Positions 1 through 38,792 of a DNA stretch of 38,792 nt are shown here, in pieces (the first letter of the stretch is position 1; the number at the start of each line of letters is the position of its first letter). A program made the position numbers and the translations under genes. The stretch covers positions 1-38,792 of the forward strand of contig CAYSWT010000006.1 of assembly GCA_964434845.1 (NCBI GenBank), in the 5' to 3' direction. The stretch is from an uncultured Atribacterota bacterium. GTDB taxonomy: Bacteria > Atribacterota > Atribacteria > Atribacterales > Atribacteraceae. The notes under the pieces are model-generated. The model had not been told where the DNA came from. It saw only the letters and a program-made list of their open reading frames with translations, and searched no databases.

Positions 1-97
1 CTTTACAACTCAACACCTCAACCTCTCAACAACTCAACATTTTGGTGTTTTCATCCTCATATGGTGCCACAACGTGGCATGGCGGTCTATTATCCAG
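1..97 (-). repeat. Copy 1 (truncated by the window edge, reverse orientation) of the intergenic structured repeat family. Tandem CTCAACnn octamers at 6..37, core complement ggcatggcggtctattatcc at 76..95.
   Basis: Reverse complement of 8..96 aligns almost base-for-base with 38566..38652 (GGATA.TAGACCgCCATGCC ACGTTGTGGC ACCATaTGAGgATGaAAACACCAAAATGTTGAG...). Lies just 3' of the nrdJ stop. Confidence 0.8.
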
Positions 98-14019: not shown

Positions 14020-14197
14020 TTCAAAATTTGTATAAAAGTATCACCTCAATGAGATTCTTGTCAAGGATAATGTGTTTAAAAAGAGGCAAGAACCAATAAT
14101 TTTTCCGTCAACTGAGGATCGACCAATAAACCCTCTCTTGTTTCCCCTGCTGATGAATTGACAGAGTATTCACACAGATTCATAATATGCAAATAAA

Positions 14198-14293
14198 TAG
14201 ACATTCATGCCCATGGTTATTGCTCCTTGAAAGTAGGTTGAGTTTTCATCTTTCAGATGGTGCCAAGGTGTTTTCCTGGCATGAATGTCTATA
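14198..14293 (-). repeat. Copy 2 of the structured repeat family (MITE-like, 15-bp perfect terminal inverted repeats ATAGACATTCATGCC / GGCATGAATGTCTAT)
   Basis: TIRs at 14198-14212 and 14279-14293. Core ACCATCTGAAAGATGAAAACTCAACC present in reverse orientation. Sits in the divergent livK / flavodoxin promoter region. Confidence 0.8.
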
Positions 14294-14336
14294 AAGTGGT
14301 TGAGAAAAGGATAAATTTCATGGAGGATAAAGAATC

Positions 14337-23530: not shown

Positions 23531-23627
23531 CTTTTCATCCATTCCAACTCAACATCTCAACATTCTTACAATAAATATTTTTCATCCTCTGCTGGTGCAA
23601 GGGTATTCATCTGGCATGAATGTCTAT
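23531..23627 (-). repeat. Copy 3 of the structured repeat family (reverse orientation)
   Basis: GGCATGAATGTCTAT (23614-23627) is identical to an arm of copy 2. CTCAAC repeats at 23545-23562. GGATGAAAA complement at 23531-23540 and 23581-23590. Confidence 0.7.
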
Positions 23628-23727
23628 TTTCCATTTATTGCATACAAATATAATACCAATGAATAGATTGAGCAAACAGTATATAATACGATATGATGAG
23701 AAAAATAAATAAAGGAGGTGCAAAGGT

Positions 23728-24096
23728 GTGCCAAACTATATTGAGCCCGTTGAAGAACTCTCCAGTCACGATCGTGACATTCACCGAACTCTCAATAGTC
23801 TAAAAGAAGAGATTGATGCCGTTGAATGGTATCACCAACGAGCTGTGACCACCACCGACATCGATATGAAAGCCATTTTAGTACACAACTTAGAAGAAGA
23901 AATCGAACACGCTTGTATGCTTTTAGAATGGCTCCGTCGGAATATGCCCGGCTGGGATGAACGCTTAAAGATATATTTATTTACCGCCCAATCCATAACT
24001 GCTATTGAAGATCACGCTCCAACCGATTCATCAGAACCAAAAGAACGTTCTTTGGATGATTTGGGAATCGGGAATCTAAAAAATATTTCTCTCTAA
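23728..24096 (+). CDS. Encapsulated ferritin-like protein (EncFtn) cargo with C-terminal encapsulin targeting peptide
   Basis: GTG start with AAAGGAGG RBS. Close match to EncFtn: …AVEWYHQRA…ILVHNLEEEIEHACMLLEWLRRN…YLFT…ITAIE. C-terminal SLDDLGIGNLK matches the GSLxIGxLK cargo-loading peptide. Confidence 0.85.
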   Translation: MPNYIEPVEELSSHDRDIHRTLNSLKEEIDAVEWYHQRAVTTTDIDMKAILVHNLEEEIEHACMLLEWLRRNMPGWDERLKIYLFTAQSITAIEDHAPTDSSEPKERSLDDLGIGNLKNISL

Positions 24097-24163: not shown

Positions 24164-24967
24164 ATGAATATTTTAAAACGGGAGTTATCTCCGATAACCA
24201 ACCAAGCCTGGCAGGAGATTGATCGTCAGGCCAAAAGAATATTCCTCACTCAACTCACCGGACGGCGCTTTGTTGAAGTGATTGGACCAAAAGGGTGGGA
24301 TTTTGCCGCTGTGGGATTAGGGCGAATAAATGTTCCGGAAAACCAACGGGATGGAGACGTTCGTTTTGGAATCCATATGGTTCAACCATTAGTCGAAATT
24401 CGAACCTCTTTTCAACTTGATCTGTGGGAATTGGATAATATTACCCGGGGAGCAACCGATATCGATTTTACTCCTCTGATTGACGCTGCCAAACAAACAG
24501 CTCTATTCGAAGAAAAAGCCATTTATCATGGGTTCGAACCGGGAGATATCGATGGGCTTCTTCCGGTGCTTGAATATGAACCCCTTCCCTTCTCCCATGA
24601 CCCGGGGGAGTTTTTCGGTAGCGTGTTAGAAGCGGTTGCCGTTTTAAACGACGCCTCGGTTACCGGTCCTTATGCTTTGGTGATAAACCCACTTCTCTGG
24701 GCTGATCTAGCGGCAACAAAAAGTGGCTATCCATTAAAGAAACTCATCGAAAGCACGATCGAAGGTCAAATCATTCCGGCATCAGTACTGGAAGATGCAT
24801 TAATCGTGTCAACCCGGGGCGGCGATTTTGAATTGATACTCGGTCATGATCTATCGATCGGATACGAAAGCCATGACGATAAATACGTTAACCTTTATTT
24901 TACAGAATCCTTCACTTTTCGCATCCTCGATCCTTCAGTGTTTGTCCGTTTGAGTGTAAGTGATTAG
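24164..24967 (+). CDS. Family 1 encapsulin nanocompartment shell protein (linocin M18-like, HK97 fold)
   Basis: 267 aa. MNILKRELSPITNQAWQEIDRQAK…TQLTGRRFVEV.GPKGWDFAA…TSFQLDLWELDN…GPYALVINP…GGDFELILGHDLSIGYE is collinear with Thermotoga-type encapsulin. Confidence 0.9.
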   Translation: MNILKRELSPITNQAWQEIDRQAKRIFLTQLTGRRFVEVIGPKGWDFAAVGLGRINVPENQRDGDVRFGIHMVQPLVEIRTSFQLDLWELDNITRGATDIDFTPLIDAAKQTALFEEKAIYHGFEPGDIDGLLPVLEYEPLPFSHDPGEFFGSVLEAVAVLNDASVTGPYALVINPLLWADLAATKSGYPLKKLIESTIEGQIIPASVLEDALIVSTRGGDFELILGHDLSIGYESHDDKYVNLYFTESFTFRILDPSVFVRLSVSD

Positions 24968-28509: not shown

Positions 28510-28585
28510 GGATCGACCGCCATGCTGCTTGGCAGCACCATGTGAGGAATGAAAATCAAATGAGCCACATGCCATGGCATGTGGC
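28510..28585 (+). repeat. Copy 4 of the structured repeat family, plus a 22-nt perfect palindrome
   Basis: GGATCGACCGCCATGC-TGCTTGGCAGC-ACCATGTGAGGAATGAAAATC, then GCCACATGCCATGGCATGTGGC (28564-28585). Confidence 0.75.
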
Positions 28586-28804
28586 CCGTTACTTGTTACT
28601 GTAATTAATAATAGTGTGAAACTTTGAAGCTAAAAATTCAAGTCCTATTCCCCCTCCTTATTGGTGATTGATAACTATTTTACCCGAATATGATCGTTCC
28701 TACCATCCCCTGGTGAATGGAACAGTGATACGGGTAAATCCTTTTTAGCGATTTTCAAGATAAACACTCCTTATTTTTAGTATTTTCAGTGGGAAATGAA
28801 TATA

Positions 28805-38323: not shown

Positions 38324-38563
38324 CCATTTCCTAATCTATAGTAAAAACACATCCGATAGCATAAACATCATTCAATTTTTAGTGATCAGATGTTTTTTGT
38401 CAACCTCGGTTCAAATGTTTTATTGAAAGAAAAATTCCCAACCAGAGCATTCCATGTGAATTATTTCTTGTAACAAAAGCATAAAAATTCATATTGGATG
38501 GAAAAAGAATGTGGAAGGTTGCTAAATAGTAAACTTTTTACATTTTACTTTTCACTGTATTTT

Positions 38564-38652
38564 CAGGATAGACCCTCATGCCACGTTGTGACACCATGTG
38601 AGTATGGAAACACCAAAATGTTGAGGTGTTGAGAGGTTGAGGTGTTGAGTTG
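38564..38652 (+). repeat. Copy 5 of the structured repeat family, with four tandem GTTGAGnn octamers (38620-38651)
   Basis: caGGATAGACCCTCATGCC-ACGTTGTGAC-ACCATGTGAGTATGGAAACACCAAAATGTTGAGGTGTTGAGAGGTTGAGGTGTTGAGTTGG. Near-identical to copy 1 (reverse complement) at the other end of the window. Confidence 0.85.
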
Positions 38653-38712
38653 GAAAAAAGCTAATGGAGAAAATTTTTTTACGACTCACTCCTCATGACT
38701 CACGGAATTTCC

Positions 38713-38775
38713 AGGATAGACCCTCATGCCGCATAGCGGCACTAGATGAGAATGAAAACTTTGAGGGTCTATCCT
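38713..38775 (+). repeat. Copy 6 of the structured repeat family: compact 63-bp version with 14-bp perfect terminal inverted repeats AGGATAGACCCTCA / TGAGGGTCTATCCT
   Basis: aGGATAGACCCTCATGCC-GCATAGCGGC-ACTAGATGAGAATGAAAACTT-TGAGGGTCTATCCt. Confidence 0.85.
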
Positions 38776-38792
38776 TTCAGTTTTAGTCTTTT

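Follow-up and report, generated by a model that had tools for sequence, protein, structure and literature searches.

In the window, the whole stretch of 38,792 nt of DNA analysed here, six intergenic copies of a repeat share the string ..GA(G/A)G(A)ATG(A/G)AAA(C), and the question is whether this string starts translation or is part of something else. The sequence-only reading had proposed a portable translation-initiation module, a leader peptide or a mini-ORF, with the remnant end of an insertion sequence (IS) as another option. All six strings quoted in that reading were located in the window sequence, and a covariance model recovered exactly the same six copies (E 4e-11 to 1e-8, values that are rough by the tool's own statement).

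The conserved core and its ATG

The covariance-model matches lie at 45-92 (-) for copy 1 (60.5 bits, E 3.7e-11), 14240-14294 (-) for copy 2 (50.4 bits), 23576-23629 (-) for copy 3 (49.0 bits), 28510-28558 (+) for copy 4 (54.5 bits), 38566-38613 (+) for copy 5 (52.0 bits) and 38714-38761 (+) for copy 6 (58.1 bits). None of the copies overlaps a gene (6/6 intergenic). The 13-mer by itself is weakly specific, with 37 matches at up to 3 mismatches against 21 expected, and the composite pattern ATAGACNNNCATGC..CACYA..ATGRAAA gave 5 matches against 0.00 expected. The GAGG..ATGAAAA string is the 3' end of a conserved core of about 45 nt with the consensus (A)TAGA-C-NNN-CATGC-(covarying hairpin)-GCACCA-N2-3-A-R-A-(N)-K-R-ATGAAAA, or ATAGAC-NNN-CATGC-(hairpin)-CACCA-N5-8-ATG(A/G)AAA in composite form, in which GAGGATGAAAA is the linker after the hairpin. 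The interval 38598-38625 covers the 3' core of copy 5 and its mini-ORF.

The motif ATG lies at 54->52 (-) in copy 1 (mini-ORF MKTPKC and a stop), 14249->14247 (-) in copy 2 (10 codons), 23585->23583 (-) in copy 3 (16 codons), 28549-28551 (+) in copy 4 (MKIK and a stop), 38604-38606 (+) in copy 5 (METPKC, stop at 38622-38624) and 38752-38754 (+) in copy 6. The ORF lengths of 4-16 codons given earlier do not hold for copy 6, the ORF of which leaves the window and has 41 codons in the longer contig L095.

Because the pattern behind our first sample, a genome scan described below, forces ATAGAC, CATGC, CACYA and ATGRAAA, statements on conservation rest on an independent sample of 102 metagenome loci, chosen only by a donor-loop-like pattern (ACCACARATTGTYGC..AGCACGNAGGRTAGA) further inside the left end (LE) of the elements, 140-170 nt away. 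The covariance model was run on 100 of these loci and found the motif upstream of this pattern in about 93, and in a strict-pattern subset of 43 loci the motif was verified on the same strand, 140-173 nt upstream. Of the 85 distinct copies in this sample, 82-84 keep the ATG, and ATGAAAA is nearly invariant.

A conserved ATG with a purine-rich tract ahead of it, in a host whose genes use strong Shine-Dalgarno sequences (SDs; e.g. AAGGAGGTG before 23728), is what one would expect of a motif that is translated or lends its start to downstream DNA, but the details of the motif are not. While the purine tract does start at the 4-6 nt before the ATG that had been noted for an RBS, the GAGG core ends only 0-1 nt before it, and none of 108 copies has a GGAG, GAGG or AGGA core ending 3 nt or more upstream. 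The five bases before the ATG (n=108) read TGAGG in 16 copies, GAAGG in 12, AGAAG in 8, AGATG in 6 and TGACA in 5, among others; AACA, AACC, AGTA, GATG and others also occur in the tract, which is variable in the independent sample too (G/A, A, -/T/A/G, G/T/C/A, G/A). The ORFs from the motif ATG have a median length of 23 codons, compared with 19.5 for random ATGs, and their peptides are unrelated, agreeing in 'MK' only, which is imposed by ATGAAA. The A-run after the ATG is conserved as well as the ATG itself, with AATAAAA and GTTGAAA as exceptions. An SD about 5-10 nt upstream and a conserved peptide or ORF length, the marks of a leader peptide, were both absent. None of the six window copies is fused to a gene, stands next to a gene start or shares its frame. 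The portable initiation module, leader peptide or mini-ORF does not survive the spacing, the unconserved GAGG, the random ORF lengths and the unrelated peptides. Taken together, translational signatures are absent and the translation reading is close to refuted, with hardly any probability left to it; a false lead is removed, and there is no new translation module here.

The module matches the left end of IS110-family elements

Scanning one genome per species with the composite pattern returned at least 94 loci. Among the loci listed, many are in Candidatus Atribacter MAGs, with unit types that match those of the window, which makes Atribacterota the probable source of the window; Paenibacillus, Desulfotomaculum, Alicyclobacillus, Evansella and Syntrophomonas are among the others, and the loci often lie at contig ends. 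Bacillota and other phyla contribute the full-length relatives. In 11 of the loci listed, an ORF on the same strand starts 120-230 nt downstream of the motif, with the Pfam domains DEDD_Tnp_IS110 and Transposase_20 (E 2e-36 and 2e-20); the PF01548 and PF02371 recombinase domains are present in the relatives L093 and L070. The transposase of these full-length elements starts at a site and SD of its own, 120-230 nt downstream, which again argues against initiation at the motif. A single covariance model matches all six window copies and the start of the LE in the roughly 93 loci of the donor-loop sample.

The boundaries of the elements were seen by comparing three related full-length elements at different loci, with a transposase identity of 46-86% within the compared set. 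On the left, similarity is lost exactly between the flank and ATAGAC..motif; on the right, it is lost where ..TTTTCAGG ATAGAC meets the flank. The right end (RE) of full-length elements reads ..TTTTCAGG(A) followed by TAGA, also written ..TTTTCAGGA followed by TAGA. On the complete Alicyclobacillus dauci plasmid NZ_CP104065.1 (L225 19740-21325), an element annotated 'IS110 family transposase' interrupts bioB. Its left junction reads TTTACTAT, then TAGA, then CTCCCATGCC, the hairpin and GGATGAAAA.., and its right junction reads ..ATTTTCAGGA, then TAGA, then AAGAAGT. From the junctions and the boundaries it follows that the core is about TAGA and that the motif is the first ~45 nt of the LE. The plasmid annotation also lists a truncated bioB overlapping the element's right end.

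Units without a transposase carry the same type of core at both junctions. ATTTCCAGG is followed by ATAGAC in copy 5, TATTTCCAGG by ATAGAA in L099 (a contig covering the copy 1 site), and ATTTTCAGG by ATAGAA in Atribacter units; copy 2 ends in CTACTTTCAAGG. Copies 5 and 2 show homology to the RE; copies 3 and 4 have no more than degenerate right ends. The homology of the module to IS110 left ends and the element boundaries are direct observations, and we consider it probable, at roughly 0.8, that the motif is the conserved LE module of small transposase-less IS110 relatives and not a translation start. The repeat family, abundant and unannotated, would then consist of miniature passengers of bridge-RNA (IS110) recombinases.

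The remnant of an IS end suggested earlier is thus right in kind, the parent type being the IS110 family, with full-length elements found after the same core; it is wrong in that the transposase ORF does not begin at the motif ATG. Two further details differ from the suggestion: IS110 elements have no terminal inverted repeats, and no sigma-70-like promoter was found in the motif.

A different origin would be a host REP-like extragenic repeat, outside the mobile element, that IS110 elements target as a safe harbour. IS110-family elements do often insert into REP sequences (PMC11208160, PMC12288879), and RE-like sequence stands directly before some full-length copies, with LT ..CTTTCAGG in L046, ..TTTTCATG in L001 and ..TTTTTCAGG in L138, as it does before 39 of 101 motif copies. 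This explanation is nevertheless very unlikely. The element contains the hairpin part, between its left junction and the transposase, and has the TTTTCAGG part at its other end, whereas insertion into the motif would place them the other way round; the A. dauci copy sits in bioB, which has no such repeat, and has brought the motif along; and the motif travels with closely related transposases across loci assigned to different phyla.

The hairpin, the linker and the guide segments

The module can also be compared with the left end and bridge RNA of IS621. In the full-length relatives, the LE segment CCCG-NNNN-ATAGAC agrees in 29 of 36 positions with the 3 bases that lie to the left of the insertion site; for shuffled pairings the mean is 12.8, and 0/5000 of them reach 29. 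A second LE segment, GCACG-CAGG(A/G)TAGA, copies the RE-core junction. This guide-like covariation suggests that full-length LEs behave like bridge-RNA genes, with the target and donor guide logic of IS621. The papers on IS621 describe target-guide and donor-guide segments and a structurally conserved 5' stem-loop, deletion of which lowers recombinase binding and slightly lowers recombination (PMC11208160, PMC11208158).

The module contains such a stem-loop. Its 6-bp helix, TGCNNN/NNNGCA, is kept by compensatory changes: in the independent metagenome sample 95.5% of positions are paired and 4/6 pairs are compensatory, with a score of 0.477 against 0.134 shuffled (0/500 shuffles reach 0.477, and slid controls stay at or below 0.12). 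In the first sample, for which the score was not separated for this helix, 90.8% are paired and 3/6 pairs are compensatory, and a set of 19 distinct copies, drawn from the window and from eight contigs related to it, gives 97.2%, 3/6 and 0.405 against 0.182 shuffled. Judged by analogy, this hairpin is most likely the stem-loop at the 5' end of the bridge RNA, and the covariation together with the IS621 analogy suggests that it is transcribed. The linker behind it reads CACCA-(G/T)CAGA(N)GG-ATGAAAA, and 'GAGG ATGAAAA' is its 3' end. The linker may serve as a handle for the recombinase or the RNA, in processing, or as a site in the DNA. Its Atribacter-type form, CACCAGATGAGG, was absent from all 102 metagenome elements. 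A second helix between NNN-CA and the linker TG..GG (CCTCAT/ATGAGG) was rejected, as pairing reached only 51% of cells and the NNN bases change without regard to the linker. A C/D-box or k-turn reading of GAUGA was also dropped; the preprint 10.1101/2024.06.21.599552 gives no such bridge-RNA motif.

Pattern scans found no target-binding-loop-like or donor-binding-loop-like segments in the window copies or in the fetched Atribacter-type loci. Lacking guide loops, the window copies do not qualify as bridge RNA genes. Compared with IS621-type elements (PMC11208160, PMC11208158), the full-length relatives share a core repeat at both junctions, the lack of terminal inverted repeats, a DEDD recombinase preceded by a long LE that does not code, and a 5' stem-loop conserved in structure and followed by guide segments that covary with target and donor. 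They differ in the core, which is about TAGA here and CT in IS621, and in the hairpin flanks and linker, which are conserved in sequence here, whereas the 5' stem-loops of the IS621 type are described as sequence-diverse. The window copies keep the 5' module only, minus both guide loops.

The same module might instead act as a junction or outward promoter (Pjunc-like), or as a domesticated small or cis-regulatory RNA, in which case ATGAAAA would be a -10-like box or an RNA motif. IS110 circles rebuild a promoter across the RE-LE junction (PMC11208160), copies 2 and 3 lie upstream of host genes and are co-directional with them, and copies 6 and 2 form very stable hairpins (z -6.6 and -4.9). We regard this explanation as unlikely. 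A simple scan of the motif strand in 38324-38792 showed nothing like a sigma-70 site, a -10 and a -35 box would have to lie in the variable hairpin, the orientation of the copies relative to genes is inconsistent, and the downstream genes are unrelated (an ABC-transporter binding protein; a Big_5/cohesin/PKD protein; none). Nor does any Rfam family match: with Rfam 15 at the gathering threshold there was no match on the window or on the LEs of 12 full-length relatives, and at E <= 10 the region around copies 5 and 6 gave chance-level matches only. On the motif strand of the region of copies 5 and 6, neither a sigma-70-like promoter nor an intrinsic terminator was found, and no tRNA or tmRNA was found. 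The idea of a riboswitch or other cis-regulator was set aside on the unrelated downstream genes. A RAGATH-18 RNA (72.9 bits) was seen at L078:1737-1798 (-) in a Paenibacillus MAG, about 600 nt from a full-length element, and is probably a coincidence.

Miniature units and their tandem arrays

As LE modules of transposase-less elements, the window copies belong to units that consist of the module, a short cargo (hairpins, GTTGAG repeats or almost nothing) and an RE, and these mini-units measure 68-250 nt. Copy 5 is complete. It extends over 148 nt at 38568..38715 (+), with its LE module, GTTGAG 8-mer repeats as cargo at 38620-38651 (+) and the RE ATTTCCAGG at 38707-38715, where the RE is followed directly by the ATAGAC of copy 6; the spacing of the direct repeats is likewise 148. 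Copy 2 is a minimal LE+RE unit of about 68 nt at 14225..14294 (-), with the LE at 14294->14240 and the RE-like CTACTTTCAAGG at 14236->14225, and agrees in size class with the 73-76-nt LE+RE units of Paenibacillus ginsengihumi. An inverted partial copy of the LE start (ATAGACATTCATGCCC, 14197..14212 (+)) adjoins copy 2 and forms a 15-bp stem with it; the RNA fold of the two has -30.5 kcal/mol (z -4.9).

The remaining copies are cut by the window ends or less well preserved on the right. The LE module of copy 1 (45..92 (-)) has the core TAGA, RD CCGC, the hairpin TGCCAC/GTGGCA and the linker CCATATGAGGATGAAAAC, and the unit runs on through GTTGAG 8-mer repeats (44->1) past the window start. Two other contigs, L099 and L100, cover the same site with the same LE. 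The left flank and the near-identical LE module precede cargo and RE that differ among the contigs: the window and L100 are alike, and L099 deviates, its mini-unit being 190 nt long with a cargo of its own that ends ..TATTTCCAGG before ATAGAA. The cargo of the copy 1 and copy 5 type is a tandem 8-nt periodic array of GTTGAG repeats (GTTGAGGT GTTGAGAG GTTGAGGT GTTGAGTT; 38620-38651 (+) and 1-32 (-)), which supplies several SD-like GAGG strings. An attC or integron reading of these repeats was rejected, there being no integrase and the ends not matching.

In copy 3, the LE module (23576..23629 (-)) is followed by two GTTGAG repeats (23537-23560 (-)) and by a degenerate RE-like sequence, CAGTTTACCAAATGG, near 23511->23497 (-). 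Copy 3 lies in the divergent promoter region of an encapsulin operon, with an EncFtn-like cargo at 23728-24096 (+) and a Linocin_M18 shell protein at 24164-24967 (+). The LE module of copy 4 (28510..28558 (+)) carries the variant ATCGAC and GAGGAATGAAAA with one extra base, and is followed by a perfect 22-nt palindrome, GCCACATGCCATGGCATGTGGC, at 28564-28585 (+) and by a possible but degenerate RE, GATTTTCAAG followed by ATAAAC, near 28752-28766 (+). It aligns with complete units of about 165 nt from Candidatus Atribacter MAG loci that carry cargo of its type and end ..ATTTTCAGG before ATAGAA. Related Atribacter units have GACATGCCATGGCATGTC where copy 4 has the palindrome GCCACATGCCATGGCATGTGGC.

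Copy 6 (38714..38792 (+), to the window end) has its LE module at 38714-38761, followed by TGAGGGTCTATCC at 38762-38774, the reverse complement of GGATAGACCCTCA, and folds with -31.7 kcal/mol (z -6.6). Its RE (..GAGTTTACAGG) lies past the window end, the continuation being visible in L095-L098; the right ends of both copy 1 and copy 6 are visible only in longer contigs. In copies 6 and 2, a reverse-complement junction copy (GGATAGACCCTCA / ATAGACATTCATGCC) closes a long hairpin, and in relatives this copy covaries with the NNN of the LE, e.g. GCTCA/TGAGC in L041. Spanning RE end, core and LE start, this junction copy may act as a guide-like segment or as a structural stem, or be a further inverted copy that is truncated.

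An array of 5-8 short LE...RE units in tandem begins with copies 5 and 6, as seen in contigs that share the flanking AP_endonuc_2 gene, the last gene of the window. Beyond the window end, the arrays occupy L095:9063-10001, L096:8721-10001, L097:6910-8021 and L098:611-1549, with minus corresponding to the window's + orientation. Array units start with ATAG(A/T)N and end ..TTTNCAGG. The left edge of the array is a motif-less unit of 42 nt (38526..38567 (+), ATAGTA..CTGTATTTTCAGG), made up of a core, a short body and an RE (ATAGTAAACTTTTTACATTTTACTTTTCACTGTATTTTCAGG) without the LE hairpin module, which reappears at the distal end of the L096 and L097 arrays. Past the third unit, the arrays and the genes beyond them differ among the four contigs with the common flanking gene; this is due either to a strain-variable hot spot or to assembly chimerism at the repeats. 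LE variants and cargo types are shuffled among the units, and the breakpoint lies where ATGAAAA ends. The unit types have only the module sequence in common, and exchange within it, whether homologous or site-specific, would therefore give this shuffling.

The 'tATTTTCAGG' ahead of many copies, including copies 5 and 6, is an RE, and 39 of 101 motif copies follow directly after RE-like sequence. Left-target flanks of full-length elements often end ..AGG, as the RE does. Other transposase-less units with both ends occur in Desulfotomaculum UBA7919 (about 290 nt), in Paenibacillus ginsengihumi (73-76 nt, in tandem) and in Candidatus Atribacter (about 165 nt). Copy 2 is present in 10 of 10 examined contigs with the neighbouring gene, with the same intergenic spacing, and the spacing at copy 3 is kept in the 7 contigs spanning the site, three others breaking there. 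No empty site was recovered in the examined contigs of close strains.

The window copies do not carry the DEDD and Tnp recombinase domains of an autonomous IS110 element. Pfam scans of the 18 window ORFs gave no IS110 recombinase, and tblastn with the subgroup transposase gave no match in the window or in the fetched Atribacter-type loci. A helper IS of Atribacter type was found neither in the window nor in the Atribacter MAG loci or the 102 metagenome loci, but these assemblies break at repeats and may hide one. We propose that a cognate IS110 recombinase, together with its bridge RNA, would act in trans to excise and insert the mini-units; no helper was found for this organism. From 5' to 3', the module would consist of the recombination core of about TAGA, the right-donor half-site C-NNN-CATGC, the hairpin and the single-stranded linker. 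In full-length relatives the rest of the LE follows, with guides for the left flank of the target and for the right end of the element itself, then the DEDD recombinase gene and the RE. At the RE-LE junction the bridge RNA would read only some 10-15 bp around the core, and the LE guide of a cognate helper would be predicted to match TTT(T/A/C)CAGGA joined to TAGA, and CNNNCATGC. A resident right end, ..CAGGA joined to TAGA, appears to resemble the preferred left-target flank. Through this likeness, new insertions would probably land beside old ones and give tandem arrays.

A more far-reaching version is possible, and we hold it only tentatively and with low confidence: the LE module and RE would be the ends of cassettes that a bridge recombinase stacks and exchanges at hot spots, giving an integron-like, strain-variable array in which hairpin and linker serve the mini-units as a required cis handle, in RNA or ssDNA. 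If true, this would be an integron-like tandem array built with IS110 chemistry. For IS621, a 22-bp donor is enough with the bridge RNA in trans (PMC11208160), a requirement that does not predict a hairpin-linker cis handle. Several points count against the IS110 mini-element reading in general. A recombinase and guide-loop-like segments were looked for in the window and the fetched Atribacter-type loci, and empty sites in close strains, and none of these turned up. The right ends of copies 3 and 4 are only degenerate, and with IS621 needing only about 22 bp around the core in cis and its 5' stem-loop being nearly dispensable, the conservation of hairpin and linker in guide-less units is not accounted for. 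A hairpin-plus-linker of about 45 nt kept with compensatory changes in units minus both guide loops hints at a function not revealed by the work on IS621, and the mini-units may be regarded as a natural experiment on the minimal cis requirements of bridge recombinases.

The nearest known counterpart is MITEPpu9 (ssr9) of ISPpu9 in Pseudomonas putida, which is flanked by the A'/B' boxes of ISPpu9 and circularises with the ISPpu9 transposase (PMC12288879). Like the window units, it is transposase-less and bounded by its parent's left and right boxes, with a left box of about 43 bp containing an inverted repeat and the same core at both junctions; it is found beside the parent IS in tandem as well as by itself at other places, and has been proposed to hitch-hike on the IS110 transposase. 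Unlike MITEPpu9, the window units have an unrelated sequence, a cargo of short hairpins, repeats or nothing rather than a defined sRNA gene, a much higher copy number, with units lined up in long tandem arrays, and a left module conserved across loci assigned to several phyla; their own organism has yielded no parent IS. REP/BIME sequences and IS200/IS605-derived palindrome-associated elements are also short, intergenic, hairpin-bearing and often clustered, and also break assemblies. However, the enzyme in the 11 full-length relatives is an IS110 DEDD recombinase and not Y1 (RAYT/TnpA), the ends match IS110 LE and RE, and the window units have no 5' tetranucleotide of the GTAG type.

The mini-units lie in host-gene promoter regions and at what may be strain-variable hot spots, and metagenome assemblies break at them. 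In these lineages the repeat family interrupts assemblies systematically; MAG and metagenome contigs (L101, L102, L221-L224 and many of L001-L094) often end in or beside the motif.
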